From contig JAFUXF010000020.1 of the NCBI GenBank assembly GCA_017477185.1, positions 1,884 through 65,883 of the forward strand: 64,000 bases of DNA, given 5' to 3'. The notes beneath the pieces were generated by a model. It ran no database searches and was not told the DNA's origin. It saw only the letters and a program-made list of their open reading frames with translations. The position numbers and the translations under genes are program-made. Below, one piece after another: positions 1 to 28,654 of the stretch. The stretch's first letter is position 1. Every line of letters starts with the position of its first letter. The stretch is from Alphaproteobacteria bacterium. GTDB taxonomy: Bacteria; Pseudomonadota; Alphaproteobacteria; RF32; CAG-239.

Positions 1-138
1 TACCTCCGGTTTGGCGGTGTCTCCGTCCAAAACAAAATATTCCACCGACCAGCTCTGTTTTTGCCGTCCCCAAGCGACAACCTCGCACTCAATACGGTCT
101 TTTTGAATATCCACTCCGGCCGTTAAGAATAAGCCGCC
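1..138 (-). pseudogene. Lambda-type terminase large subunit (GpA family) fragment, N-terminally truncated, running off the window start
   Basis: Minus-strand translation GGLFLTAGVDIQKDRIECEVVAWGRQKQSWSVEYFVLDGDTAKPEV matches the GpA nuclease-domain motif; an in-frame stop near 202-204 and no upstream start leave the ATPase half missing. Confidence 0.75.
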
Positions 139-192
139 GAAGGGATGATCGGTATTCTCCGCGGTATCGGCGTGCTGGAGAAATAATAAATC

Positions 193-220
193 AAAACCTC
201 TTCACTACGAAGAGGCTTTT
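193..220 (-). terminator. Hairpin terminator after the duplicated tRNA-Ile2 3' end
   Basis: AAAACCTCTTC-ACTAC-GAAGAGGCTTTT inverted repeat with A/T tails. Confidence 0.6.
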
Positions 221-223
221 ATA

Positions 224-400
224 TGGTGGGTCCTGCTACGATTGACGTCGCTTATGCTCCGCCGAAACTGCACTCATCAGCTAACGCTGACCGGTGTGCT
301 CCCGCTCACCTTTCGCTTGTTTTCAAACTTGCTTCTCGCAAGTTCGAGCTGTCATAAACTTACCAATAAAAAATCCTACCGCTAGGGTAGGATTTTTTAT
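224..400 (-). repeat. tRNA-linked palindromic element downstream of tRNA-Ile2
   Basis: 224-236 copies tRNA 3' end 401-413 (12/13); 336-348 is an exact inverted copy of T-arm 418-430; perfect 19-bp inverted repeat 362-380/386-404. Confidence 0.8.
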
Positions 401-477
401 TGGTGGGCCCTGCAAGACTCGAACTTGCGACCAGACCGTTATGAGCGGCCTGCTCTAACCAACTGAGCTAAGGGCCC
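401..477 (-). tRNA. tRNA-Ile2 (CAT anticodon, lysidine type)
   Basis: Reverse complement GGGCCCTTAGCTCAGTTGGTTAGAGCAGGCCGCTCATAACGGTCTGGTCGCAAGTTCGAGTCTTGCAGGGCCCACCA folds as a cloverleaf with CAT and encoded CCA; GGGCCC acceptor stem is of the Ile2 type, not the Met types. Confidence 0.92.
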
Positions 478-511
478 GACACCTAAATTAAGCACATTTT
501 ATTTCTCGTGC

Positions 512-750
512 CACAAACATAATTATTAAGAGCAGGCCTGAGTCGCTTCGTAAAACTCGGTTCCACCTCGTTAACTACGCTCCTGTTGTTCGCTCGTAAC
601 GGTTGTTTCGGTGCGCTGTCGCTTCTTACAACCTAACTGCGCTTCACCTTTCGGTAAAAATTAGTCCGCCGGACTAATTTTTTTGCCTCAAACTAACCAA
701 CTGAGCTAAGGGCCCGACACCTAAATTAAGCACATCTTTATATTTCGTGC
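512..750 (-). repeat. Structured element upstream of tRNA-Ile2 with duplicated leader and 5' tRNA fragment
   Basis: ~455-511 is repeated at ~694-750; 529-538 AGAGCAGGCC is the inverse of tRNA 448-457; hairpin AAAAATTAGTCC-GCC-GGACTAATTTTT at 656-682. Confidence 0.75.
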
Positions 751-845
751 TATTTTCATTCGTCACTGGAAGGTAATTTATTCTTACCCTCAAGTCAAGT
801 ACTTTTTGTATCTTTTCAAACGATAGGAAAAATATTTTAATGTGA

Positions 846-1307
846 CTATTTTTTCGGCTGTGGTTTTAAAATAGCATGATTGACTGTTTGTCCTACTTTG
901 ATTTGATGTTTTTCTACTTCACCGGCATTGAGTTCTACAAATGCTTTGGCCGGTGCAGGGGCAATGATTATTTCTTCAGACATTGGTGTTGTTTTTTCTT
1001 TAATCCAAAATATTTTATTGTCATCGTCTATGAATAAAACATCTAATGAAATTTTTGTGTTTTTCATCCACATAGCCGTAGGACGATCTTGATGGCGAGA
1101 AAGATCAAAAATCATACCGCTTTTTGTATCAAGAGTATCTCTATCCATCAACCCTTTTTCCAATTCTTTATCAGAAATGGCGGTTTCTACATTGTATGTA
1201 AGCTCGCCATTTTCTGTTTGAATACTTAAAGGGGATAAGATAGAATCGGTTTTTTGACAACTGCATAAAATTATGAGCGTCATCAGTAATATGGGCATTT
1301 TATTCAT
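846..1307 (-). CDS. DUF192 family lipoprotein
   Basis: GLMDR...GMIF...MWMKNT..SLDVLFID...VELNAG motifs; lipobox-like N-terminus. Confidence 0.9.
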   Translation of the reverse strand: MNKMPILLMTLIILCSCQKTDSILSPLSIQTENGELTYNVETAISDKELEKGLMDRDTLDTKSGMIFDLSRHQDRPTAMWMKNTKISLDVLFIDDDNKIFWIKEKTTPMSEEIIIAPAPAKAFVELNAGEVEKHQIKVGQTVNHAILKPQPKK

Positions 1308-13146: not shown

Positions 13147-13320
13147 TGGTTGCGGGGGGAGGATTGTCTCGCCCCTTCAGGGGCTTCGTGCTGCGTCGTC
13201 GCAAGGGCGGCGATACTTCCGTCTCGCCTGCTCCTCCTTGTGAACCTCCTTCTTCGGATGTTCAAATCCTGGCAACTCATATAAAACAAAAACCACCCTA
13301 AAGGGTGGCTTCTGTTTTAT
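13147..13320 (-). repeat. tRNA-linked palindromic element downstream of the original tRNA-fMet 3' end
   Basis: 13147-13165 is identical to 13321-13339 (19/19); inverted T-arm copy at 13254-13270 (16/17); hairpin 13281-13320. Confidence 0.8.
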
Positions 13321-13368
13321 TGGTTGCGGGGGGAGGATTTGAACCTCCGACCTTCAGGTTATGAGCCT
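13321..13368 (-). repeat. att site: displaced original 3' half of tRNA-fMet
   Basis: 48-bp direct repeat of 30105-30152 with 6 mismatches, all in the T-stem. Confidence 0.93.
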
Positions 13369-13481
13369 TTAGAACAAGCATTTTTCGCCCCTTAATTTTC
13401 AATGTGTTTTCAGTAATATCAATAATTTAGTAAAAATACTCATACGCTTAAATACGCTCATTTTCGACCATTTTTGCCCTC

Positions 13482-13640
13482 TCAGGTTGAACATAGGTTG
13501 AACCAAAATGAGCTTTTGTTAACCTTTTTTCATCTTGTAAATTTTTAGCTAATATATTGAATAATTTTGACTTTTTTATTTTTTTAGGATATATTTAATT
13601 CATAAAAGGTTGAACCGAAACGAGTGAAAAGGTTGAACCG
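13482..13640 (+). repeat. Integrase arm-type sites (AGGTTGAAC x4)
   Basis: TCAGGTTGAACATAGGTTGAACC at 13482-13504; AGGTTGAACCG at 13607 and 13630. Confidence 0.75.
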
Positions 13641-13658
13641 CAGAATAAGGAATCGAAG

Positions 13659-14876
13659 TTGAAAAAAGTTATAAATTTTACAAAAAATAAGATAGATCAA
13701 TTAACTATACCGCAAAAACGCACGGAATACTATGATGCTACTGAGGATAAGTTATGCTTACAAATTACCCCAAAAGGATGCAAAACTTTTTATCTGATTA
13801 AGAAAATTGATGGCAAGGTTATCCGTTTGAAAATCGGCAGATATCCGGATATGGCAATCGACAAGGCTCGTGGCAAAGCCAGAGAATTGAAAGCCCAAAT
13901 AGAGCAAGGAATTAACCCGGCTGATAAAAAGCATCAATTAAAAAATGAAATTACATTTTATGAGATGTATGAAAAATTTAAGGAAGATAGCAAATTGTAT
14001 AAAAAAGCATCTTCAATCAGAAATGATGGGTACAATATCAAATATTGTAGAGCCCTATATGATATGAAAATATCAAAAATAACAAGTGATGACATTCAAG
14101 CATTATTCAAAGAAATTAGTCTTAACAATGGTAAATCACAAGCAAGTCATGTATTGGAATTTATAAGAGCTATGTTTAATAGAATGATAAAAACTTATCA
14201 TTGGGAACATATTAATCCAACAATGGGTATAAAAAAATATCCTAAAATAGCAAGAAAAAGATTTGTTCAACCAGAGGAATTTCCTATATTTATTCAGCAA
14301 TTAAGAACGATGCCTCAGTATTTTCAAGATTTCGTTATGTTAAGTATCTATATGGGAGGAAGAAAAAGCAATATTCTTGGTATGTCTTGGAAGAATATTA
14401 GTTTTCGAGCTAAAAAATGGTATATTGATGAAACAGAAGCAAAAAATAATGATAGTGATTATGTAAGCATCAATAATGAAGCATTCAAAATTCTAAAACG
14501 CAGATTTAATGAACGAAAAGAGGGTAATATTTGGGTATTTCCATCGGATAATTCTGAATCAGGTCATATTGTTGAGCCCAAAAGACAATGGAAACAATTG
14601 ATGAATAAATTGAATGAAGCCATTGCTTGTGAAGAAGATAAAATAACGAATTTGAGAATGCACGATTTAAGAAGAACTTTTGGATCTTACCAAGCAATGA
14701 ATGGAGAATCTTTAATCATTATAGGTAAAAATCTAACACACAAATCTTTGCAATCAACAGAAGTATATGCCCGTATAAATGATAATGCTGCAAGAGCAGC
14801 AAGTGAACGAGCCGCAGAATCCATCAATTTAGCAATAAGTGGTGAGTATGGTGAGGAGAACGATGATGAAGAATAA
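13659..14876 (+). CDS. Tyrosine integrase, P4-like, with arm-DNA-binding N-terminal domain
   Basis: N-terminal KIGRYPDMAIDKAR; catalytic R (GGRKSN), K (AKN), HDLRRT, LTH and Y (EVYAR). Confidence 0.95.
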   Translation: MKKVINFTKNKIDQLTIPQKRTEYYDATEDKLCLQITPKGCKTFYLIKKIDGKVIRLKIGRYPDMAIDKARGKARELKAQIEQGINPADKKHQLKNEITFYEMYEKFKEDSKLYKKASSIRNDGYNIKYCRALYDMKISKITSDDIQALFKEISLNNGKSQASHVLEFIRAMFNRMIKTYHWEHINPTMGIKKYPKIARKRFVQPEEFPIFIQQLRTMPQYFQDFVMLSIYMGGRKSNILGMSWKNISFRAKKWYIDETEAKNNDSDYVSINNEAFKILKRRFNERKEGNIWVFPSDNSESGHIVEPKRQWKQLMNKLNEAIACEEDKITNLRMHDLRRTFGSYQAMNGESLIIIGKNLTHKSLQSTEVYARINDNAARAASERAAESINLAISGEYGEENDDEE

Positions 14877-15066
14877 AACTATCACTCCTACATTATTAAG
14901 CACAGAAGATGCTGCTATATATCTTGGAATTTCTGCCAGAACATTGGAGACTTGGCGTTGTAAGCAAAGATACGATATTCCTTATGTAAGAATAGGTTCT
15001 GTTGTCAGATATAAAATTAGCGATTTAGATGATTACATAAGCAAAAATACAATAATAGCCTCATAA
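14863..15066 (+). CDS. Excisionase / HTH_17 DNA-binding protein
   Basis: LLSTEDAAIYLGISARTLETWR..IPYVRIGSVVRYKISDLDDY; GAGGAG RBS. Confidence 0.88.
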   Translation: MMKNKTITPTLLSTEDAAIYLGISARTLETWRCKQRYDIPYVRIGSVVRYKISDLDDYISKNTIIAS

Positions 15067-15093
15067 CATCACCAATCAAAAAGCCTATGGTTA

Positions 15094-15531
15094 TTAGCCA
15101 TGGGCTCTTTTTTTACTCAATATCTCATCAGCTATCTTACACCAATCTCTATAAACTTTGTTCGGCTTATCCAGATTTAATCTTCCTTTTTCCGCAATAA
15201 ATTGCGGATAATATTCTGATTTCATATACAAACGGTTGCCAACGCCCAAATTACAAGACCGCCACTCTGGCTTATGAAGAGTTTCAAAAAACGCATCAAC
15301 TACCTCAGTTGATTCTATACATTCGGCGGTTAACATATATTTTTTGCCATCTTTGGTAAAAAATTGGCTAGCACCAGCCCAACCCATAGCACCGCTTGAA
15401 GCAACTGCCACAAAAGCAATATTATCAAAGTTGATTTTGCTAAATGTTTCCGCCGACAATTTATCAAACAAAAAGTCATTAAACAGATACTTGTTGTCAG
15501 CAGATAATTCAATCAATTCACCCGATGACAT
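15094..15531 (-). CDS. Hypothetical protein overlapping the ARH gene
   Basis: 145-aa ORF overlapping the upstream gene end; AMG-like motif (SGAMGWAG). Confidence 0.7.
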   Translation of the reverse strand: MSSGELIELSADNKYLFNDFLFDKLSAETFSKINFDNIAFVAVASSGAMGWAGASQFFTKDGKKYMLTAECIESTEVVDAFFETLHKPEWRSCNLGVGNRLYMKSEYYPQFIAEKGRLNLDKPNKVYRDWCKIADEILSKKRAHG

Positions 15532-16313
15532 GACAATGCTCCTTCAATTTCTGCCAAATAACCACGCAAATTGTCGTCCAGCTTACCAAGAGCAAACTCT
15601 CTTATCTTATCAGACACACCATAATAAGCCTCTGCAATACTTCCGGTAATCGCAGCAATTGTGTCGGAATCTCCGCCTATGGAGATAGCATTTCTTATAG
15701 CATCCTCAAAATCCGTTGATTCAAAAAAGGCTTCAAGGGCTTGCGGCACGCTTCCCTGACAAGATACCTTGAATTTATAAGTCGGGCGAATTTCATCAAG
15801 TGTAAAATCCATAGGATAGTAATTTTTGACGGTATATTCCCTAATTTCTTCTTTCTTTTTACCCTGTAAAGCCAGATAAATTGCCGCAGCAGTTGCCTCA
15901 GCTCCTTTAATTCCTTCCGGATGATTATGAGAAACCGCACTTACTTGGTAAGATAAATCCTTAACTTCTTCCAAAGACTTTGCAAAATATGCCACAGGAC
16001 TAACTCTCATTGCTGAGCCATTTCCCCAAGAATTATAAGGCAACGGATTTTCTTCATTTAGCCAAGCTCTAAAATTGCCACCATATCCGGCATCAGGGTA
16101 TTTTCTTCCCAATTTTTGCATCCATTTAATCGCTGTCTGGCTTAAATTCTCATAATTCCCCTGACATTCTTTAAGAGCCATAGCAACAGCCAAGGTCATA
16201 ACCGTATCATCTGTAAAAAAAGCATGGTCATCGAAAAAATTAAAATCCTTAGTTTTAATGTTGTCCCACTCATAAATCGAGCCGACAATATCCCCGACAA
16301 TTGCTCCAATCAT
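15513..16313 (-). CDS. ADP-ribosylglycohydrolase (ARH/DraG family)
   Basis: GAIVGDIVG, FTDDT, GNGSAMR, SHNHPEG, GGDSDTIAAITG. Confidence 0.95.
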   Translation of the reverse strand: MIGAIVGDIVGSIYEWDNIKTKDFNFFDDHAFFTDDTVMTLAVAMALKECQGNYENLSQTAIKWMQKLGRKYPDAGYGGNFRAWLNEENPLPYNSWGNGSAMRVSPVAYFAKSLEEVKDLSYQVSAVSHNHPEGIKGAEATAAAIYLALQGKKKEEIREYTVKNYYPMDFTLDEIRPTYKFKVSCQGSVPQALEAFFESTDFEDAIRNAISIGGDSDTIAAITGSIAEAYYGVSDKIREFALGKLDDNLRGYLAEIEGALSCHRVN

Positions 16314-17776
16314 TTATTTCCCTCCGCATATCTGTAAAGCACACCCATCAACAGCACCATAGCATAGGTATCTTGTCCGCAGTATTTGAGTAATGCCTCA
16401 AACATTTGCTGACTTTCGGTTTTGGTCTGTTTACCTTCAAGAAAGGCTTTATATTGGCTCATCGCCTCGCCACCATTGGCAATTGCCATGCCTTTATACG
16501 AGAGGTCACAGAAAGACGGCAAAACATACTTAATTGAAGCCGAACTTTTTTGCTTGTAGCTATACAGAGCTCTCTGACGGAAGGGTATCAGCTGGTCAAC
16601 CACTCGCTCGTTAATAGCCAACAAATCATCTGCTAAATCAGGAAATAAAACTGCTAACTCCTTATTTCTGGTCATTTCAAATGCCTGATTATAAACCACG
16701 ACCGAACCTTGTTTACCACAATACTTAACTAAACATTCTGCTAAGGCACGACGAGGATCAGAGCGTTCTTGATGCAAGAACTCATAATGTTTTAACTCTC
16801 CGCCGCGTTGTTCCTGAACATGCAAAGAGAATTGGAACGGAATCTGGCTATAAGGTTTTGAGCTATCAAACATCGGAATGGGGCATTGGACAGTTTCGTA
16901 ATCAAGGTAATATAAAGGATATTCCAACGTATCGAGCCATTCCTTGATATGTTCAGGCTCAACGTGCTCTGCCTGATTAACATAACAATCTCTGTCGATG
17001 AGTTGCCTATCTGTTGAGCAAAGGTCTATCGGCACATCTTCGACTTTTGTGGAATGGGTTTGATTATAAAACAAATCGGCAGCCTGAGCGGAAAGCAGGT
17101 CGAACACAGAGTATTCGGGCACATCTTTACCGCAATAACCCCAAAACGGACAATCTTGACAGTTGGCGTGAAGCGTTGTTTCTGGCTCATTTTTTTCTTG
17201 CTGAGCGGAAAGCATACCTTTGACATACATTTCAACATCTTTACAGGCTTCCGCAACACGCTCGGAAACATCTTCCTCTCTGAACATTTGAGAAATATCA
17301 AGCTCTCCATGTCTGACATAGTCATTATTGACATACAGCACACGGCATTGTTTAACCGGATATCCGGCATTTTCAAAAACATATTTTTGGAACGAGAGGT
17401 CATCAATGTAATAGTCCTTAACCGATGTCGCAGACTTAATCTCAATCAGATTCCAAGCATCGCCGTTTCGCTCCAAAATATCAATCCGACAGAAACAGCC
17501 GTTATCAAGTTTAGCCGTCGCTTCAAACAAGATATCATTGGTTTCAGCCAAAGCCTTAGTTTTGACGGCACCACCGATTACATCCCACGATTCTGAATCA
17601 ACGAGAACGCCGTTAGGATACCATTTTCTGGCGAGGTCTTGAATTTCATTCCCGTCCTCAAAAGATTGCAACGTGCGTGCATCATATTCGGGCACGAGGT
17701 CTTTTCGATTCTTTTTAAGCCATAACGCCTTCACACAATCGAGAGCCATGATATAGTCAGATTTAGAGAGAAACAT
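16310..17776 (-). CDS. DUF2779-type protein: Cas4/RecB-like PD-(D/E)XK nuclease plus DEDD RNase-H-like domain
   Basis: LSKS..C; RIDIL..LIEIKS; CQDCPFWGYC; YLDYET, IPFQFSLH, VYNQAFE, YCGQD. Confidence 0.85.
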   Translation of the reverse strand: MFLSKSDYIMALDCVKALWLKKNRKDLVPEYDARTLQSFEDGNEIQDLARKWYPNGVLVDSESWDVIGGAVKTKALAETNDILFEATAKLDNGCFCRIDILERNGDAWNLIEIKSATSVKDYYIDDLSFQKYVFENAGYPVKQCRVLYVNNDYVRHGELDISQMFREEDVSERVAEACKDVEMYVKGMLSAQQEKNEPETTLHANCQDCPFWGYCGKDVPEYSVFDLLSAQAADLFYNQTHSTKVEDVPIDLCSTDRQLIDRDCYVNQAEHVEPEHIKEWLDTLEYPLYYLDYETVQCPIPMFDSSKPYSQIPFQFSLHVQEQRGGELKHYEFLHQERSDPRRALAECLVKYCGKQGSVVVYNQAFEMTRNKELAVLFPDLADDLLAINERVVDQLIPFRQRALYSYKQKSSASIKYVLPSFCDLSYKGMAIANGGEAMSQYKAFLEGKQTKTESQQMFEALLKYCGQDTYAMVLLMGVLYRYAEGNK

Positions 17777-17788
17777 TGTTAAAAGTCC

Positions 17789-18556
17789 TTATTTTATCAT
17801 ATTGCGAATTAAAAATTGTGTCATCGGCACGGCATTCCATCCGGCAGAGTTGAAACCATAAGTGATTTTAAGCGGTTTCGGCTCATCCAAAACGGTAATA
17901 ATCGCGTAGTTCTTGCCGTTTAAGGCAAAATCAGCCAGAAAAACATTTGTTCTTTGAGCATTTTCTTTATGGTCTGTGCTTGAAATTCCTGAAACCTGTA
18001 CGCCTTCAACCTGTGCTTTTCGCGATATCCCGTTCTGGACATTATTGAGCAAAGCGGCTCTGAGAATATCAAGCTGTTCGGATGTTAATAGGTTGTTTTT
18101 GTTATTTAGGAGAGACGTATAAGCGGTTAGAAGTTGTCTGGGCGTAAGTGTATCCGTCAAATTCAATGCTTCATAGACAGGCTTCTTAGCCTCATCTGTG
18201 ATGGTTTTATAGGCTTCTTTATCTTTTTCAAACGAAACATTTTCTGCGGTAATTTCACCGTTTTTCAGCCCTGCGGCATAGAGAAAAAGTTTATTAATGT
18301 TATGTGGCGTGAGGGCAAAATTCTCATCCATATTGATGAAAGAAGTATCGACTGTCTCGCCTGTATCGCGGTCAATGAGGATATAAGCCCCACCGCGAGC
18401 ATTAAATTTAAGCATGAACTCTTTAAGAATATTTAGATTAGCTTGCCTCAACACTTCTTCATCAGAGGACAAAACAGAATGCCTGCCGTAAAAATATGCT
18501 CCGATAACACTACCAAGAACGATAAGGGCAACAAACAAAAATTTGAGTATTTTCAT
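17789..18556 (-). CDS. Truncated, catalytically degenerate PBP transpeptidase-like membrane protein
   Basis: N-terminal TM; C-terminus resembles FtsI (AQVEGVQVSG..YAIITVLDEPK..TYGFNSAGWNAVP), with KTG replaced by ISS. Confidence 0.65.
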   Translation of the reverse strand: MKILKFLFVALIVLGSVIGAYFYGRHSVLSSDEEVLRQANLNILKEFMLKFNARGGAYILIDRDTGETVDTSFINMDENFALTPHNINKLFLYAAGLKNGEITAENVSFEKDKEAYKTITDEAKKPVYEALNLTDTLTPRQLLTAYTSLLNNKNNLLTSEQLDILRAALLNNVQNGISRKAQVEGVQVSGISSTDHKENAQRTNVFLADFALNGKNYAIITVLDEPKPLKITYGFNSAGWNAVPMTQFLIRNMIK

Positions 18557-18693
18557 CAACAATCTCCGGTTTAGTTAATTATTTTTCGTGGCTAACAAGT
18601 TGGTTAAATAACCACATCCGGAAATATTGTTAACACACCTTATCCGTTATTGCAAGCCCCCTAACTTATAGTTATGTCAGATTCTGACAGAGG

Positions 18694-21531
18694 TTATTCT
18701 TTTAGTAAGTCATTTATGATATTGCTAATGCTTTGGTCTGATTGTATTTCTCGCCATTCTATTTTCTCATTTTTCATCTTCTCAAAGAATTTCTTTTGAG
18801 ATATTATAATATCCTCATCTGACACTCGTTTATTTGTATCATTTGGCTTTGCTTCTACAAATAAGTTAATTTTAATATTATTCCCTTTTTTAATGGCATA
18901 AATAAAATCAGGAGATGTTGTTCCTCCGGTATATTTAGGAACTTGAATACATCTTTTAGGAAGTTTACCAAATACTATAATCTCGTTAGGTGGGGTTGTC
19001 TGTAATATCTCTTTTTCTGGCTCACTATCATAAACTTTTTTATCATAAAGATAATTTGGCTCAATTTTGAAAGAATTATCTTCGCTAGTCCCCAATTCGT
19101 TTTGAGGTATATCATCAACAAATTCACCATCTTTCATCAAAGATGTATTTGCTGAAAAATCCAAAGAATCATAATCAAATTTTTGAGCATAATTCTCGTG
19201 AAACTCGGACTTAAACTTGTTTACAATATTTTGCAGACTTGCAGTATTGAATTTTTCCTTATTTAAACCTGTGGCATAAACCTTACATAAAGCTTTATGC
19301 CATAAATTAACACCTACACAGGTTAGTTTTGAAAGTTCTGTTAAAAACTTCCCATAAGGAATAATATCAACGGGGATATTTGTTGATTTTTTCTCTATTT
19401 CAAGACACAATCCTCCTGTTATTTCATTTCTGACCAGTTTATTGATTATTATTTCACCCACATTAGATGTAAAAGCATCTTTGACAGCACTGATTAAAAT
19501 ATTTTCCAAGTCAGACAAAGAAATGCTATCATATTTAATCATATAGCGTTTAACAACCTGCTGCCATAGGTCTTTAAGCTGATTCCAGTTAGGTTTATTT
19601 AATTTAACTCTATTATCCAATTTTTTATTAACTGTAATGGCTCTGGGATTAAGTTTACCCCAACCATTTGGTAATAATTCTTCAAGTTTGGAAAGTTCTA
19701 TAATATTATCTTCTTCATCAATAATATCATCTAATAGTAATTTACCTTTTGCTTTTGCGATATTTATTGCATAATTGCTTTTTACTAATGCATCTAAAAT
19801 ATCAGGAGTTAATTTCATTATGCCTGAGTTATCAATATTAGCATTGATTTCACCGAGCAATTTAGCGGCAAATCCCTTTTCTGACCAATCAATAATGAAA
19901 TTAAGTCTAAATTCTTGATTTGATATTCTTCTACCATTCTCATCTACCGGCAATCGCAAGCCACGACCAACTTCTTGAATTTTACTGATTTCGCTGCCTG
20001 ATGTTCGTAATTTTGTGATAGTAAATACATTAGGGTTATCCCAACCTTCTTTCAAAGTCCATTTGGAAAATAAGAATCTGCAAAGTTCCCATTTACCATT
20101 TTCGTCCTTAAAAGAAAGTAATTTATCTTTACCATTTAATATTTTATCAACTTCATCTTGAAATTCTTTATCATCTTTATCACCGGAAAAATATCCTGCG
20201 TGTGTCTTTGATATGTTATCTAAACTTTCCTCTAAGAATTTTTTATAGTCAGGTAAAGTTTCAATTTGTATCAACTGTTTTAATTTTTCTTTGAGCAATT
20301 TTTCAAAAGTATCTTTAAGCCAAGTCTCGGCTCCTTCTTTTTCGGGGCGATATGATTTAATATCATCGATAAAAAATAAAGCTAATGTCTTTATTTTTGC
20401 AGGATTCTCACCACAACTTTCTCTAATCCAATTAGCTCGTTCTGCCTCAAAATGTGCATCTATTGCCTGCTTCAACAATAACTCTTGATAAGATTTTGTA
20501 TAGACTTCTGGAATTAACTCCATACCTTCATACACTTCTAACCCATTTGACAATTGTTTCATTCCGTCATAAAGTAATCCATCGTCAAAATCAGAAGGCA
20601 ACATATCGCCAACATTAAGTACTATACTGTTATTTTGATGATTTTTACGAAGAGTAAGTTGCCTATTTGTTAATCCTACAACCTTATATCTATTTTGAGA
20701 TTGTTTGTCTGAAATATTTTCCGGATATTGAACATCTATAAATTTTACCAATCCTTTATTAAAAGCATCAACCGCATTTAAGTCATATACCAAGTTTTTA
20801 TAATCTATTTTCTGCGTTCTATTTCTACCAGCTCCTATTGTTCTTACAGGAAAAGTAGCCCCAAATCTCAAAATTATTTGCGGCTCTAATTCCGTAATTT
20901 TCTCCCAAGCCTTTGTATTTTCATGAAAACGGTGAGGTTCGTCAATGATGATAACAGGATGCACCATTTTAATTGCTTCAATCGGACAAGAACTTGAAAA
21001 TAAAAGTGTTTGGTCATAATCATTTCTCGCCATTGAAGAACTTGTAAGCATATCATCATTTAGCAACAGGCATTTAATAGTCCTTTTATCGTTTCTTGTT
21101 GCTTCCAAAAATTCCATCAGTTTAGCAGGGATTGTTTTTCTTCCTTTTTTTGTGCTAAAATCACCTGCATTGATATAACACAAATCTATACGAGTATTTT
21201 CATATTCAGGTATATCTGCAAAATGTTGACGAGCATAATCTGATTGAATAAAACTCTTTGTTCCTTCTTTAATTGCTAACGATGGAACAAATATTATAAA
21301 TTTATTGATACCAAAACGCGTAAATAATTCATACATTGTTCGTGTATATACATAAGTCTTTCCTGTTCCTGTTTCCATCTTAACATCAATATAAAAAGGC
21401 TCAGATATTTTTTTATCAAGTATCGGATTTGCATAAACATCACCTTTTTCAAAATGACAGTTATCCAAAGCCTTTATTATTGCTTTTAATGCTGATTGTT
21501 GATGAGCCAATTCTTCTAAAACAAGTTTCAT
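18694..21531 (-). CDS. res: Type III restriction endonuclease Res subunit
   Basis: METGTGKT, IIDEPH, LKEGWDNPNVF, QEVGRGLRL, SPDF...FVEAK. Confidence 0.95.
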   Translation of the reverse strand: MKLVLEELAHQQSALKAIIKALDNCHFEKGDVYANPILDKKISEPFYIDVKMETGTGKTYVYTRTMYELFTRFGINKFIIFVPSLAIKEGTKSFIQSDYARQHFADIPEYENTRIDLCYINAGDFSTKKGRKTIPAKLMEFLEATRNDKRTIKCLLLNDDMLTSSSMARNDYDQTLLFSSSCPIEAIKMVHPVIIIDEPHRFHENTKAWEKITELEPQIILRFGATFPVRTIGAGRNRTQKIDYKNLVYDLNAVDAFNKGLVKFIDVQYPENISDKQSQNRYKVVGLTNRQLTLRKNHQNNSIVLNVGDMLPSDFDDGLLYDGMKQLSNGLEVYEGMELIPEVYTKSYQELLLKQAIDAHFEAERANWIRESCGENPAKIKTLALFFIDDIKSYRPEKEGAETWLKDTFEKLLKEKLKQLIQIETLPDYKKFLEESLDNISKTHAGYFSGDKDDKEFQDEVDKILNGKDKLLSFKDENGKWELCRFLFSKWTLKEGWDNPNVFTITKLRTSGSEISKIQEVGRGLRLPVDENGRRISNQEFRLNFIIDWSEKGFAAKLLGEINANIDNSGIMKLTPDILDALVKSNYAINIAKAKGKLLLDDIIDEEDNIIELSKLEELLPNGWGKLNPRAITVNKKLDNRVKLNKPNWNQLKDLWQQVVKRYMIKYDSISLSDLENILISAVKDAFTSNVGEIIINKLVRNEITGGLCLEIEKKSTNIPVDIIPYGKFLTELSKLTCVGVNLWHKALCKVYATGLNKEKFNTASLQNIVNKFKSEFHENYAQKFDYDSLDFSANTSLMKDGEFVDDIPQNELGTSEDNSFKIEPNYLYDKKVYDSEPEKEILQTTPPNEIIVFGKLPKRCIQVPKYTGGTTSPDFIYAIKKGNNIKINLFVEAKPNDTNKRVSDEDIIISQKKFFEKMKNEKIEWREIQSDQSISNIINDLLKE

Positions 21532-23390
21532 TAAAACCTCTCAATCAACTTTATATCATTACTCAAAACAGATTTTAGGTTATTTTTTAGTTCTGTCAGA
21601 GATGTAAAATCAAATGAATGGCTATATACCACAATGCTTTGAACTATTAGTTCATTTTTACCAATTTTATTGAGCAAATCCTTCGTCGCATCACTGTTCC
21701 ATCCGGTATCAATTAAATACAACCGACGAGATTCCTTTGGTGTGTACGCAGTATAACTACCGAATTTTTTCTCTTCAACTGACGTTGTGAGGGCATATCC
21801 GTCATCAACTAACCAGGTTGTCAGCAGTGTTTGCATGCCAGAAGCTTTTAATGTTGTATTTAAGTTTTTACCAGAAAAAGATTCAACCATGTTATCACAA
21901 ATAAGTGTTTTATCATTAGGATTAAATTCATCAATTTTTTCTAATATCTTTGTATCATTAATTTTAGCCAATTTATAATGCTTGAATCCTGAGAAATCAC
22001 CAAGTTGTTTCGCTGCTTTTTTTATTCTATCACGAGCAATTTGGTCTATGGTTCTGTACCCCGCCTTTCTGGCTTCTCCATCTTCTTTGGTCGGCTCATC
22101 TAATTGAACCATAATATATTTACGATGACCATTATCTTTACTATTTAGAGCCATTACAGCGTGTGCAGTAGTAGCGGAACCTGCAAAAAAATCTAACACA
22201 ATAGAATCGTGATTGCTTCCCATTTCAATAATATCACAAATCATATCTACTGGCTTAGGAAAAGGAAATACTTTGGCTCCCATTAAATTTTTTAATTCCA
22301 GAGTTCCCTTTTCCGTATTTACTTCTTTTGTATTCCAAATGGAACGAGCCATATGATTTTTTTCTCTATATTTTTCAATTATTTGATAGCCGCCATCTTT
22401 CATTTTTTTTGCTAATATATTAATATTTAAATTATTTTTTGATTTTTCCTTTCCCCACCGCCAAACAGTTTTATAACCCTGCGATTCCTTAGGATATAAT
22501 TCAATCCAATTTTCTTTTTTTTCTAATGATATTTCATAAAATTCATTATCTATAATTTTATTGGGATTAATATAAAATGGGTAGTACAAATTAGGACGAT
22601 TTTCTGAGGTAAAGGCAATATTTCTATTTCTTAATTCTCTTATTTCAAATCCGCCCATATTATCTTCAAATGGAAATTTCTTATCTTCATCTCTAATATT
22701 ATTAATTTCAGCTTCGGAAGTCTTCTTATACACTAACAAATAATCATGCATTCTTGCTATACCACCATAGTCTCGTCCACGAGGATTACTGGCTACTGTA
22801 ATTTGCCCGACAAAATTGCTTTCACCAAATAATGAAATATCATTACATAACGCTCTCAAATTCGTTTGTTCATTATCATCTATCGATATAAAAATTATAC
22901 CATTTTCAGCTAATAAATATTTCGCTAAAATTAACCGAGGAAGTATAAAAGTTAACCAAGCAGAATGTGATGATTTTCCTTGTAATGCTTTAATACGAGC
23001 AACTTCCATTTCTGATAAACCTAATTTAACCTTTAATTCATCTGATGAAAACTCAAATTTGTCTGGATACTCAAACCCATCAGAACCCGTATTATAGGGT
23101 GGGTCTATATAAATCATCTTAATCCGCCCCACATAAGCGTTCAATAGATGTTTTAAGGCATCAAGATTATTACCCGTAATAAAAATGTTTTCACTATTTC
23201 TATTTTGTTCTTGATTATTCCACTCGGTATCTGGAACTAAAACTGTTTCTGTGGGTAGCCCTGTAATAAATTTGGCATAATCTTTACCAACAAAACGCAA
23301 TTGGTAGCCATCGTGTATTTCTTCTTTATCCGGATTCTCTAATTTTGCTTCCTTTAATTCTTTACGAATAGCTTGTAGTCCTTCAAACAT
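21531..23390 (-). CDS. mod: Type III adenine methyltransferase Mod subunit
   Basis: IYIDPPYNTG, FPKP, VLDFFAGSATT; likely ATG at 23390 after GGAG; TAATG-coupled to res. Confidence 0.95.
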   Translation of the reverse strand: MFEGLQAIRKELKEAKLENPDKEEIHDGYQLRFVGKDYAKFITGLPTETVLVPDTEWNNQEQNRNSENIFITGNNLDALKHLLNAYVGRIKMIYIDPPYNTGSDGFEYPDKFEFSSDELKVKLGLSEMEVARIKALQGKSSHSAWLTFILPRLILAKYLLAENGIIFISIDDNEQTNLRALCNDISLFGESNFVGQITVASNPRGRDYGGIARMHDYLLVYKKTSEAEINNIRDEDKKFPFEDNMGGFEIRELRNRNIAFTSENRPNLYYPFYINPNKIIDNEFYEISLEKKENWIELYPKESQGYKTVWRWGKEKSKNNLNINILAKKMKDGGYQIIEKYREKNHMARSIWNTKEVNTEKGTLELKNLMGAKVFPFPKPVDMICDIIEMGSNHDSIVLDFFAGSATTAHAVMALNSKDNGHRKYIMVQLDEPTKEDGEARKAGYRTIDQIARDRIKKAAKQLGDFSGFKHYKLAKINDTKILEKIDEFNPNDKTLICDNMVESFSGKNLNTTLKASGMQTLLTTWLVDDGYALTTSVEEKKFGSYTAYTPKESRRLYLIDTGWNSDATKDLLNKIGKNELIVQSIVVYSHSFDFTSLTELKNNLKSVLSNDIKLIERF

Positions 23391-23635
23391 CACAGTCTCC
23401 CAAATGAACAATCCAATGAACTTTAAATTGTTCATTTTTTAAGACATTCAGAGAAAGCAATTTAACACATAAAAAACATTGGCATTTCAAGACATTCACA
23501 ATAATTTTGAAATTGTTATTGCAAAATTTAAAAGTGAATTGTATGTTTTTTTAATAAGTTCTTTAATTTTCAACATATTCCCCATAATATTTCTGATTTT
23601 TTTATAAATAATATTAGAAATAACAGGGGGATAAA

Positions 23636-24253
23636 ATGACGATATATGCCTATGTCAGGGTGAGTTCTGCTGTTCAAAATGAAGAAAATCAGCATTACGA
23701 GATAGAACAATTTGCTACTGCCAACAGCCTAATCATTAACGAATGGATTGAAGAAACAATAAGTTCCGGTAAAGACCTCAAAAAGCGGAAGTTTAACTCT
23801 TTACTCAAAAAAATGAAAAAAGATGATATCCTGATTACCACAGAACTATCCAGAATCGGTCGAAAATCATTTGAAATTATGGGAATTCTGTACGAATGCC
23901 TGAATAAAGGTTGTCAGGTTTGGACAACCAAGGAACATTACCGGCTCGGAAATGACCTTAATTCGCAGATTTTAGCTTTTGCCTTTTCTATCTCAGCAAC
24001 CATAGAAAAGGAACTTATTGCCGCCAGAACTCGCGAAACTTTGGCAAGGTTAAAAAGTGCGGGAGTTAAATTAGGTCGTCCGTTTGGTTCAAAAAATAAA
24101 TCCTATAAGTTAGAAGGTAAGGAAAAAGAGATTAAAGACCTGCTTGATAAAGGAATATCAAAAGCTAATATTTGTAAAATGTATGGTGTGCATCGCAGTA
24201 GTTTGTACCACTTTATAAAGAGGTCTATTTCATCATCTCAGCCAGTTCAATAA
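23636..24253 (+). CDS. Serine recombinase, Mpi-like DNA invertase/resolvase
   Basis: YAYVRVSS, ELSRIGR, KLGRP, C-terminal HTH. Confidence 0.93.
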   Translation: MTIYAYVRVSSAVQNEENQHYEIEQFATANSLIINEWIEETISSGKDLKKRKFNSLLKKMKKDDILITTELSRIGRKSFEIMGILYECLNKGCQVWTTKEHYRLGNDLNSQILAFAFSISATIEKELIAARTRETLARLKSAGVKLGRPFGSKNKSYKLEGKEKEIKDLLDKGISKANICKMYGVHRSSLYHFIKRSISSSQPVQ

Positions 24254-24674
24254 CCGTTGCTCCTTGGTTTTGGGCTCGTTTGCAAAAGCCATAAGCCCGA
24301 CCTTGATATTTATTATAGGCTATGACGAAATCCGTGTTATCTGCTATCCAGTTATTTCTCTTAGAAATACACCAACGTTTGGCATTTTCGGCTTCCGGAG
24401 GATAATAGAACTCATCAAAATACTCTGTATGATTGTTGAGGTCTTGCATATTGGCTATTACAAGAATGATATGAATGTCTGGAAATTCCTTGTTTTTTAG
24501 GTTGATAATAGTGTGGTAAGTATCAATCTCATAGCTTCCTTTTTCACCGACCAGAAAGGTATCAACACCTTCATCGGTAATAAGCCTACGGATTTGTTTA
24601 ACAACTTTATCCATCAGACCTATCGGTTGCCCCAGACCGTAGTCATTACCTAAAAAAGCACAGGTTTTTCCCAT
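24225..24674 (-). CDS. SLOG-family (YpsA/DUF1273-like) protein
   Basis: TCAFLGN, GVDTFLVG, ISKRNNWIADNTDFVIAY, G.TVIEL. Confidence 0.75.
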   Translation of the reverse strand: MGKTCAFLGNDYGLGQPIGLMDKVVKQIRRLITDEGVDTFLVGEKGSYEIDTYHTIINLKNKEFPDIHIILVIANMQDLNNHTEYFDEFYYPPEAENAKRWCISKRNNWIADNTDFVIAYNKYQGRAYGFCKRAQNQGATVIELAEMMK

Positions 24675-24953
24675 TACAAGTATCCAAAATTATACCTGAA
24701 CTGGGTTTAACAGAAATGAACATTTTTGTTAGGTGTCGGCTATTGAAAAAAACAGAGAAACAGAAATTACCATTAAATCTGCTGATACTCCTTATTTTCC
24801 TGAGGTTTTGCTTATATATATGTCTTGTTTGGGCAGATGGAATATCCGCCTCAAAAAGCGAAAAAATTAGTTGATTTTATCGTTGGTTAAAATTGCAGAA
24901 CATTATCATCATAAATCTTTGATTCTCCGATAAATATATAAAAGGAGAATTTT

Positions 24954-25550
24954 ATGATTTATGGATATATCCGCAAAAGCACAGAAAAACAGTCATTTGA
25001 GCATATGGAGTATGAAATTAACGAATATGCTGCCAAGCATAATATGAAAATTGATGTCTGGATTGAGGAAACAATATCTTCTCGCAAGCCATTAAACAAA
25101 AGAAAACTCGGTGCATTACTTGAAGAAATAAAGGATGGTGATACCTTGATATGCTCGGAACTATCAAGGATTTCTAGGTCTGTTCCAGAAACTTTCTCCA
25201 TTCTGCAAACCTGTTTGAACAAGAATTGCCAAGTCATCACAATCAAAGAGAACTATCATTTAGGAAATGATCTACAATCACAGGTATTAGCCTTTGCTTT
25301 TGGGCTTGCCAGTCAAATAGAAAGAGACCTTATCAGCCAAAGAACCAAATGCTCACTTGCTTCCAAGAAAGAACAAGGAATCAAGCTCGGAAGACCTGTT
25401 GGAGCAGAATCCAAGAGGTTAAAACTCAGCAAAAATCTTAAACGCATTCAAGATTTACTGGATAAAGGTGTTTCCAAGAACCAAATATCAAAAATAATGG
25501 GTGTTCAGTATATGACGCTTTCAAGATTTATAAAGAGAATGGGGTTATAA
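24954..25550 (+). CDS. Serine recombinase, Mpi-like DNA invertase/resolvase
   Basis: IYGYIRKST, ELSRISRS, ERDLISQRT, KLGRP, HTH. Confidence 0.93.
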   Translation: MIYGYIRKSTEKQSFEHMEYEINEYAAKHNMKIDVWIEETISSRKPLNKRKLGALLEEIKDGDTLICSELSRISRSVPETFSILQTCLNKNCQVITIKENYHLGNDLQSQVLAFAFGLASQIERDLISQRTKCSLASKKEQGIKLGRPVGAESKRLKLSKNLKRIQDLLDKGVSKNQISKIMGVQYMTLSRFIKRMGL

Positions 25551-25847
25551 AAAAATTTCCCTAAACTTCTTTACTAAATCCGGATTTTTTGCCCAACCTT
25601 GCAGGATTTTATCGCCGTCGGAGTGGTCAATCATGAAGCCGAAGAACTCATCAGAAAAGCCAAGTTTACGGCGAATTGTCTGATGATCTGCCATATCTGC
25701 CTGCCAAGCGTATGCTTCCGAGCCATTGTATAGAACACGTACGGCTTTATGCCTATCTAGCAAGGCATTTAGCTCGTTTCTTGATGATAAAAGGTAGATA
25801 TCAACCGAAGATGACGGGCTTACAGCAATTTCCTTTAACAGAGGCAT
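25545..25847 (-). CDS. Hypothetical protein, phage-like
   Basis: 100-aa ORF with AGGAG RBS. Confidence 0.65.
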   Translation of the reverse strand: MPLLKEIAVSPSSSVDIYLLSSRNELNALLDRHKAVRVLYNGSEAYAWQADMADHQTIRRKLGFSDEFFGFMIDHSDGDKILQGWAKNPDLVKKFREIFL

Positions 25848-26069
25848 GGTTTTCTCCTTAATTTATATATAGGCTATCGCTCTGATAGAAATTTTTCAAC
25901 CTAATATTTTATTGAATGCCATAAAATGACATCACTAAGGCATGCCACATATTGACTTTTTGAGCGGAATTTGTTATACGTCAACTATAAGAGATCATAA
26001 TAACATCTCTTAAAAGTGAATTTATGAACCAACTTGTCCCACTTCTGAGCGGACTAAAAGGAGATTACA

Positions 26070-26678
26070 ATGACTTTATCTGACTATCGTCAGCATTATG
26101 CTGACTTATATAGTAAAATCCAAACAGCACAAAGTGATTTAGACGACTATCTTTATGAAACCCGTGATAGTTTTAGCCGTCTTTACAAAAAACAGCAAGA
26201 GATTGATAAACGCTGGTTTGTAGCTCATTTGGACTATATCCTGAGACACGCGGATGAATTTAAGGAAAGCAAACAACTTAACAATATAGTGATTGATTTT
26301 TTGCTTCCTTATCGCAGTGCCGGAATGGTTGCAGGGTTTGCTTGGAATTCCTCTGAGGAATACAAAATCTACCTGAAAGACTTGATAAATCTTTGGGATA
26401 GCGGATTTTGCTATAAAGACAATCCAATCATCTCATATCAGGTTATCTGCCATTATGGGCGAAAAATAATTCTCGAATATGTTCAAAACGGGCGTATCAA
26501 ACAGATTACAGAAGAATACAAAAATGGTTCCAATCCTCTTGAACTCTCGAAAGAGCTGATTTCCCAAGTAAATGCCTACGACATTTCAGATCAATATCCT
26601 GACTGGAAGATTTACAAAACCATAGATGTGGTAAGGAAGATTTTGGATAAAAGGGAGAAAAACGATGAGATGGTATAA
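26070..26678 (+). CDS. Hypothetical protein
   Basis: 202-aa ORF, AAGGAG RBS, upstream TTGACT-17-TATACG promoter-like sequence. Confidence 0.75.
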   Translation: MTLSDYRQHYADLYSKIQTAQSDLDDYLYETRDSFSRLYKKQQEIDKRWFVAHLDYILRHADEFKESKQLNNIVIDFLLPYRSAGMVAGFAWNSSEEYKIYLKDLINLWDSGFCYKDNPIISYQVICHYGRKIILEYVQNGRIKQITEEYKNGSNPLELSKELISQVNAYDISDQYPDWKIYKTIDVVRKILDKREKNDEMV

Positions 26679-27333
26679 ATATAGCCGTATTGGCAAGCAA
26701 ATAGTTCTATGGCTGCTAAACAATCGTATTTTCTTCTTTTATCAGCCGTTTGAAAAAGGATATGAGTTTGAATTGCGATTTTATATTACCAAACGCCATG
26801 AGATAGCTCTTTATGGCTATGGCGATTTTGAGTGGAAGCACCCCTTTTCGGCAGCAGTTAAATTCAAGCGGACACGAATGAAGGCTAGTATAGCTCTGTT
26901 CGGCTGGGAGATCTCGTTTAGAGTTGGCAAAGTCTTTTGTGATGAGTATGATGCTCACCGAGATATTTATTTTCCATATGGTGAATTAGTTGATGGTAAT
27001 TGGCACGCCTATTTGGATAAAAAAATGACAATACCCGAAAACTATGTGAAGCCGCAACCGCAGCGAAAAAAGAATTTTTATAAATCAAAACGCATCAAAA
27101 TTTATAATAAAGATTATCAGAACTGCCCGTTCGGACGCGTTGTTGAGATTGCTCTGCCGTTTCATCATTACCTTAAATTTGATTTTCAAAAGCCTTTTGA
27201 ATACTGGGAATGGCTGGGATTTATGTTTGATATCGATTTTTCCAAAGGTTTTGATGTATTTGGCAAAATTATGCTTTGTAAATTGGAATTTATCGCCGAG
27301 ATAGCTCCAAAGAAAGGAGGTAAAAATGACTAA
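26665..27333 (+). CDS. Hypothetical aromatic-rich protein
   Basis: 222-aa ORF overlapping both neighbours, GGGAG RBS. Confidence 0.72.
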   Translation: MRWYKYSRIGKQIVLWLLNNRIFFFYQPFEKGYEFELRFYITKRHEIALYGYGDFEWKHPFSAAVKFKRTRMKASIALFGWEISFRVGKVFCDEYDAHRDIYFPYGELVDGNWHAYLDKKMTIPENYVKPQPQRKKNFYKSKRIKIYNKDYQNCPFGRVVEIALPFHHYLKFDFQKPFEYWEWLGFMFDIDFSKGFDVFGKIMLCKLEFIAEIAPKKGGKND

Positions 27334-27823
27334 ACAACTTTTCTGGCAACGATGGTTAAGAGGTGAAACGAAAAAAAGTCTAAGAGAATGGCTTGAAAGT
27401 CAAGGGGTAGATATTTCACTTTCTGGTGATAAACTCACCTTGTATCAACTTCAATGGATGGCTTTTGAAGAAGATTACGCTTTTTTCTGGGCTTATCTAT
27501 ATAAAAAATATACAGGACTCCCTGTTGACCTTAGACTTGATGAATTAGGTTGCCAACGCGGACGTAAGCTGGTTCACTTATCCAGACCTCTTTTAACTTT
27601 TCAAAATACATATGATGACAGAATTTGGGTTCCTTTGCCGATGAGTATCTCAAAAAATCCAAAGGTCTTGGAAGATGAAAAATATATCAAAATCAAGCCC
27701 GAAGATGTTGAAGCCGTGAGACAGTTTGTCATCAATCACTACGATTTACTGATGAAACACTGGAATCACGAGATTGATACGATGGAATTATGTGAAATTT
27801 TAGAAGAGGTAAACAATTCTTGA
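27326..27823 (+). CDS. Hypothetical protein with DUF4160-like C-terminal domain
   Basis: TGLPVDL...SISKNPKVL...VEAVRQFVINHYDLLMKHWN pattern; AGGAGG RBS. Confidence 0.6.
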   Translation: MTKQLFWQRWLRGETKKSLREWLESQGVDISLSGDKLTLYQLQWMAFEEDYAFFWAYLYKKYTGLPVDLRLDELGCQRGRKLVHLSRPLLTFQNTYDDRIWVPLPMSISKNPKVLEDEKYIKIKPEDVEAVRQFVINHYDLLMKHWNHEIDTMELCEILEEVNNS

Positions 27824-27846
27824 CAGCATCCAAAAAAATTTATAAT
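27820..27846 (+). promoter_or_regulatory. Sigma70-like promoter for the ArfA-like ORF
   Basis: TTGACA (27820) and TATAAT (27841) with a short 15-bp spacer. Confidence 0.5.
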
Positions 27847-27878
27847 TAAAAATCCCAATTAAAATGAAAGGAAATAAA

Positions 27879-28064: not shown

Positions 28065-28082
28065 ACGATAGCCTTCTTTTTT
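28016..28082. terminator. ~30-bp hairpin spanning the ArfA-like stop codon (RNase III site and/or bidirectional terminator)
   Basis: AAAAAGAGAGGGCTATCCTTTAATTACGTTT pairs with GAATGTGCTTAAACGATAGCCTTCTTTTTT. Confidence 0.75.
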
Positions 28083-28635: not shown

Positions 28636-28654
28636 TATAATACCCCTTTAAATA

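Follow-up and report, generated by a model that had tools for sequence, protein, structure and literature searches.

tRNA-linked repeat modules matched to their own tRNA genes in an alphaproteobacterial lineage

Why should a tRNA gene be followed by copies of its own 3' end in both orientations? The question is raised near the start of a 64,000-nucleotide stretch of DNA, called the window below, from a genome of the alphaproteobacterial lineage RF32; CAG-239 (assembly GCA_017477185.1, contig JAFUXF010000020.1, positions 1,884 to 65,883). At positions 193-477 of the window, a tRNA gene with the anticodon CAT is followed directly by a gene-less module of ~175 bp between two terminator-type hairpins. 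The feature is real and non-random, and we read it as a tRNA-linked repeat (TLR), with a probability that we put at roughly 0.7. It is filed under this class because of the features that define TLRs and because of its architecture, and not as a member of the Rfam family as now modelled. A sequence-only reading of the same DNA had placed it in a known class of tRNA-associated palindromic repeats ("tRIP-like") without a defined mechanism. A tRNA-linked and unexplained class does exist, but its published name is TLR, not "tRIP", and the phrase "tRNA-associated palindromic" was not found in a full-text literature search.

The genome analysed (G000; 37.8% GC, 40 tRNAs, 100% complete) was compared with a sister species (G002), a member of the same genus (G011) and a member of another genus (G024). 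A covariance model, R1, was built from 18 modules in five genomes of the family only (alignment A2). In window coordinates, the tRNA and the module behind it consist of the following parts.

401-477, minus strand: tRNA(CAT) gene (ARAGORN label Met(CAT); Rfam tRNA model 67.6 bits; called Ile2 in the sequence-only reading)
362-404, no strand assigned: t1, palindromic terminator-type hairpin (19-bp arms 362-380 and 386-404, 100% complementary, 5-nt loop)
349-361, minus strand: A/T-rich spacer of 13 nt (sequence comparison)
322-348, minus strand: hairpin hp1 (inverted repeat 13/13; formed in the minimum-energy structure)
237-321, minus strand: GC-rich core of type A1 (nhmmer family; R1 match 224-360, 107.8 bits)
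224-236, minus strand: B, direct copy of the tRNA 3' end, comprising acceptor 3' strand and ACCA (12/13 bases)
193-222, no strand assigned: t2, second terminator-type hairpin, which closes the module (terminator-like hairpin at 193-219)

What had been described as an exact antisense copy of the T-arm at 336-348 is indeed exact: it matches tRNA bases 48-60 (window 418-430) at 13/13 positions. The 19-bp hairpin including the CCA was also borne out, the outer 4 bp of t1 being the ACCA of the tRNA paired with TGGT. A fold-back design had been suggested, and the arms do pair as hp1: the 5' arm (338-348) carries the T-stem 5' strand and T-loop of the tRNA in inverse, the loop is GAGAA (333-337), and the 3' arm (322-332) is the direct T-stem 5' strand followed by GTTTGAA. 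The spacer at 349-361 shows little similarity to the complement of the tRNA segment that it faces (T-stem 3' strand and acceptor 3' strand); its length equals that of the facing segment, and it is probably a decayed inverted copy. At the same position, the His module of G024 and the Ser module of genome G174 have a near-intact inverted copy, so that nearly all of the last ~28 tRNA bases are present in inverse in these modules. The second copy of the tRNA 3' end was found where it had been reported, 177 bp from 401-413, but with one mismatch and hence inexact. The GC-rich core and the terminator were confirmed as well, the module having 53% GC against 37.8% in the genome and closing with a terminator-like hairpin. 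The core holds two hairpins, P2 (293-310) and P3 (277-290), and both covary. Open reading frames (ORFs) of at least 20 aa within 190-400 are short, with none of at least 40 aa on the tRNA strand of the module, and from their sequence they can be read as chance frames. Between the direct repeats there is ~160 bp of non-coding folded sequence, without a recombinase gene or cargo.

Is the module tailored to its tRNA, and does the same happen at other tRNAs? In a strict T-stem test, we searched 20-140 nt downstream of each tRNA for the inverse of its own 5-nt T-stem, a loop of 3-9 nt and the T-stem again, with at most one mismatch, using the 40 tRNAs of G000, 36 sampled from G011 and 28 sampled from G024 (104 in all). 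A cognate hairpin is present downstream of 26 of the 104 tRNAs (11/40, 9/36 and 6/28, respectively), always 48-68 nt from the tRNA, whereas T-stems shuffled among tRNAs (200 shuffles) give a mean of 2.06 and a maximum of 8. Both the tailoring and its recurrence at other tRNAs, which had been proposed from two loci only, are thus observed, and modules stand behind about a quarter to a third of this genome's tRNA genes. Scanning all tRNA flanks of G000, as had been recommended, revealed direct and inverted self-copies genome-wide, and exact self-copies of at least 10 nt flank many of the 40 tRNAs. In a local-alignment test, 19 inverse 3'-arm copies and 26 direct 3'-end copies were found among the 99 tRNAs with enough flank, 12 of which have both; this test is conservative because the T-loop is shared. 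The copies also follow their tRNA from genome to genome. For the Ile2-type tRNA, the T-stem is GTTGG in G024 with CCAAC as its inverse copy, and GCAAG in G000 with CTTGC; in G011 the acceptor reads GGATCC, as does its 3'-end copy. The 3'-end copies reach 19/19 at a tRNA-fMet fragment (see below) and at Lys-CTT, and 17 at Ala-GGC. At tRNA-Arg ACG (contig C39 of G000, 145212-145288; also locus L052 of G011), the T-stem GTGAG/CCCGC reads with an A-C mismatch, and the module has the GTGAG version in both arms of hp1.

Copies of the type A core in G000 number 12 by nhmmer and 13 by the covariance model. Ten of the 13 R1 matches lie directly behind an intact tRNA, one behind the fMet fragment, one beyond an island at Pro(GGG), 5.3 kb from the tRNA, and one at a contig end. 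Other tRNAs have modules with the same junctions and unrelated cores (types B, C and D). Beyond this genome, R1 matches 39 of 40 other genomes of the family (1-19 matches per genome), 5 of 150 others in a class sample of one genome per family (four of the five in other families) and 4 of 150 genomes in a phylum sample. All 12 matches inspected outside G000 are directly behind a tRNA and have the same plan (12/12), one of them being an enterobacterial-looking tRNA-Ser(GGA) locus. In a plain BLAST search, the module had relatives in 18 of the 24 family genomes searched and in 0 of 16 genomes from elsewhere.

The modules share a structure and not only arms. RNAalifold on alignment A2 gives a 4-bp closing helix (GGAU:AUCC), hp1, P2 and P3, with double-sided changes in 14 of 18 pairs. 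Among 49 distinct hits aligned to R1, pairing cells make up 89.1% as compared with 71.8% after shuffling, and 157 cells are changed on both sides as compared with 54; for neither measure is a value as high seen in 500 shuffles. Sliding the partner column lowers pairing to 29-54%. In P3, a helix independent of the tRNA, compensatory changes occur at 4/4 pairs. A covariance model of the cores had been suggested as a check, and it does reveal a common structure in which P2 and P3 covary. Moreover, G.U exceeds A.C in the module helices when read on the tRNA-sense strand (49 vs 16), and likewise at hp1 positions 7-8 in the T-loop, where one wobble is nearly always present (16 vs 3 in 26 hairpins). 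The excess of G.U over A.C therefore points to an RNA on the strand of the tRNA. The inverse copy pairs better with its own 3'-end copy than with non-cognate ones (mean -9.4 vs -7.9 kcal/mol; permutation p = 0.018), and in six modules the cognate closing-helix pairing ranks 1-3 of 17; a helix of this kind that closes the module is visible in the better-preserved members. The general design is a fold-back of the tRNA 3' arm with a core inserted at the T-loop, of which the copy at tRNA(CAT) is a partly decayed example. One strand of this fold-back structure is formed by the direct self-copy and the other by the inverse self-copy. CUGAUGA and GAAA in the Ile2 core were also considered as a hammerhead-like motif, a candidate that was dropped since CUGAUGA is not conserved in other copies.

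With an exact inverse copy so close to the tRNA, the module might instead act in cis on the tRNA itself: in the read-through RNA, the inverse copy would pair with the T-arm and block folding or processing, and the direct copy would compete. Pairing within the precursor had been put forward in the sequence-only reading, and the centroid fold of a 295-nt read-through transcript does show it, the 5' half of the T-arm pairing across the terminator hairpin with the inverse copy, to which it is complementary at 13/13 positions. In the minimum-energy fold, however, the cloverleaf is kept and the inverse copy takes its neighbour 5 nt away as partner, which forms hp1. Modules that lie 5-17 kb from their tRNA beyond islands keep the design, and in tandem arrays the later units have no adjacent tRNA. 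The pairing itself is possible, and a switch of tRNA maturation built on it appears distinctly unlikely.

How do the modules change with time? The comparison of G000 with G002 covers 30 tRNAs. Behind the elongator tRNA-Met, a type C core in G000 and a type A2 core in G002 are set between the same arms; the core of the fMet module is A2 in G000 and A1-like in G011; and the Gly(GCC) and Val(GAC) modules of G000 and G002 have variant cores whose P2 stems are compensated. From such sequence comparisons, cores look exchangeable between the conserved junctions GGTTCGAC and CAATC, and the arms keep matching the tRNA. At Gly(CCC), G000 keeps only t1 and the inverse T-arm (14/14) where G002 has a full module. 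At Arg(ACG) of G002, an internal deletion has left two terminators around a remnant, with 15/19 bases aligned to the 3' part of the module. The last unit of a tandem array is partial and breaks off at a point that varies (Arg-CCG, Thr-GGT, Ile2 in G011 and His in G024), and the stem TCCCTC..GAGGGA of the opening hairpin is common to the Thr(TGT) module of G000 and the Val(GAC) module of G002. No clean gain event was found between G000 and G002, and the best candidate for an empty site, Arg-ACG, is an internal deletion that keeps ~19 nt; therefore, the modules seem to have been in the lineage for a long time and to change there by duplication, remodelling and loss. A comparison of empty and filled alleles, which had been proposed, thus yielded remodelling, truncation and deletion but not the gain of a module. 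A mobile process that copies its target at each insertion had also been proposed, and this is not supported: wherever a difference between the sister species could be resolved, a long-resident module had been deleted, truncated or given another core.

A smaller palindromic insert, AACGAGTAAAT..ATTTACGAGTT, is present in locus L011 (313-408) and in the Leu-TAA module of locus L018 (both on contig C30 of G000), and the L011 insert has a second hairpin, GGAATGCTTC..GAAGCATTGG. It interrupts the 3'-end copy of the Val(GAC) module, parting ..CCTGCCA from ACTCCCACCA. The same insert is found in G002 and is therefore older than the split of the two species.

The modes of change raise an explanation in which RNA is only a by-product. 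A purely DNA-level repeat, selfish or neutral, would form when snap-back at the terminator palindrome inverts the 3' arm and a second switch returns to the first strand, after which the units spread and become homogenised through unequal crossing-over and gene conversion. We regard this as a strong contender, at a little below even odds. The order of the parts (tRNA 3' arm, palindrome, inverse arm, loop, direct arm) is what it leads one to expect, as is a 13-nt spacer of the same length as the facing segment, and the perfect inverse T-arm beside a decayed spacer speaks against it, since this needs selection or continuing correction. The partial units at the ends of tandem arrays, the truncated or internally deleted remnants at Gly-CCC (G000) and Arg-ACG (G002), the repeats of 3' end plus terminator that are identical over about 52 nt at Lys-CTT, the small palindromes nested in modules and the type B cores, which occur in either orientation and also upstream of a tRNA, are all in its favour; the covarying core helices, with their excess of G.U over A.C on the tRNA-sense strand, and the recurrence of the same plan behind tRNAs of E. 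coli and of other families sampled from the class and the phylum are not. It explains the origin of the modules and, in that respect, is compatible with an RNA role.

The type B core upstream of a tRNA is found in the window itself, at the other side of the tRNA(CAT) gene.

478-738, minus strand: upstream module, core type B (repeat analysis)

This module contains a 46-nt direct repeat (693-738, which is 98% identical to 455-500) made of tRNA bases 1-23 and 23 nt of leader, a terminator-type hairpin at 656-682, a core rich in purines when read on the tRNA strand, and tRNA bases 22-31 as an inverse copy. G000 and G024 have this module; G002, G011 and G005 lack it. Two low-depth contigs from RNA libraries, which show neither strand nor ends and come from a kind of library that can contain DNA, span 434-691 and 449-710, that is, the upstream module and the 5' half of the tRNA.

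A second copy of the layout had been reported at 13147-13339 behind tRNA-fMet, and this locus bears on whether the duplicated 3' ends are integration sites.

13147-13278, minus strand: second module, core type A2 (R1 match 72.5 bits), tailored to the displaced 3' fragment of tRNA-fMet
13321 to ~13371, minus strand: 3' part of tRNA-fMet, from anticodon loop to CCA (no gene called by ARAGORN or Rfam)
13371-30104: island of 16.7 kb between the fMet fragment and the live tRNA-fMet
13659-14876: tyrosine integrase gene beside the fMet fragment
18694-23435: type III restriction-modification pair in the island
23636-24253, 24954-25550 and 28081-28635: three small resolvase genes in the island
30105-30181, minus strand: intact tRNA-fMet gene (ARAGORN)

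The layout is as reported, with a 19/19 direct repeat (13147-13165, which is B, vs 13321-13339) at a period of 174 bp and an inverted T-arm (13256-13273) within hp1 (13240-13273), but what it follows is only a displaced 3' fragment and no gene. The T-stems of the two differ, GTTAG/CTAGC in the intact fMet gene and GGAGG/CCTCC in the fragment, and the module matches the fragment, not the intact gene. We read the fragment as the original 3' end that was pushed 16.7 kb away, together with its module, by an island integrating into the tRNA. The island also holds an ADP-ribosylglycohydrolase gene and a DUF2779 gene. The same situation is seen at tRNA-Pro(GGG) on another contig, with an insert of 5.3 kb between tRNA and module. 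Exact 14-nt copies of 3' ends, located on other contigs or at distances above 1 kb, exist for 9 of the 40 tRNAs in G000 (Gln-TTG, Asn, Asp, Thr-CGT, Gly-GCC, Glu-CTC, Val-TAC, Pro-GGG and Arg-TCT), which points to numerous island integrations at tRNA genes or else to contigs that break off within arrays of modules.

One could therefore regard the 3'-end copies as attachment sites and each module as the scar or decoy left by a tiny integrative element, and a spare or decoy attB had in fact been suggested. The distant 14-nt copies mark tRNA genes as hot spots of integration here, a tyrosine integrase lies beside the fMet fragment with three resolvases in the same island, and, where the two states of a site can be compared, the filled one looks like t1, core and 3'-end copy inserted before the old terminator. 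At both fMet and Pro-GGG, however, the islands lie between the live tRNA and the module and not at the duplicate, and it was therefore the live gene that was used. None of the modules examined has a recombinase gene inside it or next to it, a single core family is used at 12 or more different tRNAs, members of the E. coli class are found behind 5S rRNA too, and an attachment scar leaves the inverse T-arm, hp1 and the covarying core unexplained. We consider a recombination origin very improbable, and the duplicate as decoy attB is not supported by where the islands lie. Group II introns, IS200/IS605, IS110 bridge RNAs, guides of CRISPR-associated transposons (CAST) and integron attC sites, which the tailored segments had brought to mind, were also dropped as candidates, there being no partner gene nearby and the arms pairing mutually.

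In the reading as a TLR, the anatomy is best followed on the tRNA strand. A module begins with the inverse copy of the tRNA 3' arm and a short loop, continues with the direct T-stem 5' strand and GTTYGAC, followed by an exchangeable hairpin core, and ends in CAATC and the 3'-end copy through CCA. By analogy with the RtT and RrA/B/F RNAs of E. coli, the module RNA is most likely co-transcribed with the tRNA: transcription would read through t1 and terminate at t2, the RNA would fold on the tRNA-sense strand, and trimming at the tRNA-identical 3' end by the same RNases would yield a stable small RNA. We infer this 3' maturation by the tRNA-maturing enzymes from the fact that module and tRNA end in the same 13-19 nt and, in many cases, have the same trailer. 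At the DNA level, tandem duplication, core replacement between the junction motifs, truncation and deletion reshape the modules. The arms may be kept matched by templated correction across palindromes, as in quasi-palindrome template switching, together with gene conversion or unequal crossing-over between direct repeats, and hp1 would be kept by selection on the RNA. In a bolder form, which we think unlikely, TLRs would be a self-tailoring class across bacteria, in which snap-back across the terminator palindrome rewrites both arms after the stable-RNA gene that happens to precede the cassette, and the RNA serves as a cognate acceptor/T-stem mimic ending in NCCA, directed toward processing or charging enzymes.

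A scan of window positions 100-900 for promoters found 0 sigma-70-like sites and is uninformative, because even the promoter of the tRNA itself went unfound. Small shares of a 1400-base stretch occur in 14 RNA runs, and most of the pieces are the generic tRNA part at 438-477, from other organisms.

TLRs have been known from E. coli since 1978 without an accepted origin or function. The lineage studied here overturns nothing, and it is an unusually rich natural data set for this old question: it offers dozens of small genomes, each carrying between 1 and 19 copies of type A, and several core types in one junction design. Pairs of sister species differ by core swaps, truncations and deletions, and thus provide material for asking how arms are matched and whether the RNA is under selection. 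In addition, the tRNA-like fragments and 3'-end copies in the modules can be mistaken for island borders or pseudo-tRNAs, and the current Rfam RtT model misses these modules.

What do the modules share with the E. coli repeats? As described in PMC8144298, E. coli K-12 has 22 TLRs at ten loci, a class first described in 1978, with the repeats of the tyrT-tyrV operon as its archetype (Egan and Landy 1978 and Rudd 1999, both as cited in PMC8144298). Over its last 18-19 bp, each repeat is identical to the end of the tRNA or 5S gene that precedes it (PMC8144298). For RrA/B/F, which are located between T1 and T2 of the rrn operons and arise by read-through transcription, binding to Hfq and CsrA has been observed in vitro. 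Beyond this, PMC8144298 gives no function for TLRs, and work on them as small RNAs covers only three of the 22.

In the 178-bp units of tyrT/tyrV, GAAGG-ATGAGAA-GCTTC is an inverse of the tRNA-Tyr T-arm at 14/17 bases, followed by GACC, AAGGTTCGAC, CCAGCGAGAG, a hairpin and GCGAAGCGC..GAGTAATCC, and the unit closes with 19 nt from the 3' end of tRNA-Tyr. The Rfam RtT consensus closes with GGGGAAGGAU pairing AUCCUUCCCC, which is the inverse copy pairing the 3'-end copy. Our modules are related to this family. Both are located directly behind a tRNA gene, end in a copy of the tRNA 3' end, can form tandem units and have similar unit lengths (174-177 bp here vs 178 bp in E. coli). Both also have the inverse T-arm, the T-stem with GTTCGAC, a hairpin core and (C/T)AATC before the 3'-end copy. 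Type A1 cores and RtT have in common CCAGCGAGAG and GCGAAGCGC..GAGTAATCC, as well as the motifs GTTCGAC-(TA)CCAGCGAGAGG and GCGAAGCGCAGAGTAATCC. R1 finds 4/4 E. coli RtT units at model positions 1-135 (25-33.6 bits, E from 4e-9 to 1e-6 in 2.7 kb), although part of this score is owed to T-loop and CCA letters that are common to any tRNA-derived sequence.

This last qualification is one of several points that weigh against assigning the module to the TLR class and against reading it as an RNA. RF00391 has no match in window 1-64000 at its gathering threshold (45 bits), none in window 1-1000 at E up to 10 and none at E up to 1 in a further 10 module loci, whereas the four E. coli units, searched together with those 10 loci, reach 133-137 bits; an Rfam search of the window and of bases 1-1000 returned nothing beyond the tRNA and chance-level matches. 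An nhmmer profile of 32 modules misses RtT, and a profile of six A1 modules aligns one RtT unit over its full length at only E = 0.022 in 1.6 Mb. The alignment used for covariation and wobbles was fitted to the model, and its copies are kin by descent. Folding energy separates sense from antisense unclearly (sense more stable in 10/14, by a mean of 2.3 kcal/mol), and the closing helix is weak in the tRNA(CAT) module, where it ranks 5 of 17. Type B cores in both orientations and upstream of the tRNA fit a DNA-level process better than a single RNA function. Finally, contigs from four metatranscriptome runs include none over 193-400, a result that says nothing for or against expression.

The modules also differ from the E. 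coli repeats in several respects. They open with their own terminator-type palindrome including the CCA, where the tyrT units have none in between; the 3'-end copy at tRNA(CAT) is 13 nt (12/13) as compared with 18-19 in E. coli TLRs; several unrelated core types use the same junctions; and the density is much higher, with 13 type A matches per 40 tRNAs. A small protein like that of E. coli tpr, which starts at the ATG of the GGATGAGAA motif, was rejected as a general feature: the module at tRNA(CAT) has no ORF of at least 40 aa on the tRNA strand, its shorter ORFs read as chance frames, and, judged by eye, a G011 module does not have TTCGAC in the frame that it has in E. coli.

The order of parts in RrA, RrB and RrF (E. 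coli rrnA, rrnB and rrnD) is similar to that at tRNA(CAT): a stable-RNA gene, a first terminator, a module that finishes by repeating the 3' end of that gene, and a second terminator. The T1-T2 spacer of rrnB (RrB) has an hp1-like hairpin, AAATCCGC-CGGGA-GCGGATTTGAAC, and a P2-like GGCGGGC..GCCCGCC. The right arm of the RrB hairpin resembles an inverse tRNA T-arm although the upstream gene is 5S rRNA (locus L155, 258-560, between the 5S gene and murB), and the spacer repeats only 13 nt of the 5S 3' end with ~8 nt of trailer. These RNAs differ from our modules in following 5S rRNA and in binding Hfq and CsrA in vitro. G000 has Hfq, and no match to CsrA (PF02599) was found in the 100% complete genome; a role as CsrA sponge, as for RrB, is therefore excluded in this organism.

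Integrated genomic islands have duplicated tRNA 3' ends as attL and attR. The modules resemble them in their direct repeats of the tRNA 3' end, and a true island is present in the same window at fMet; they differ from islands in having no integrase or cargo, in their inverse T-arm and conserved folded core, and in the use of one core family at many tRNAs. Tandem inversion duplications and quasi-palindrome template switches are replication errors at imperfect palindromes. They have in common with the modules the order direct-inverse-direct, the turns at hairpins and the arms kept complementary. Such errors, however, are sporadic mutations, whereas the modules form a conserved family whose core is found across a phylum.

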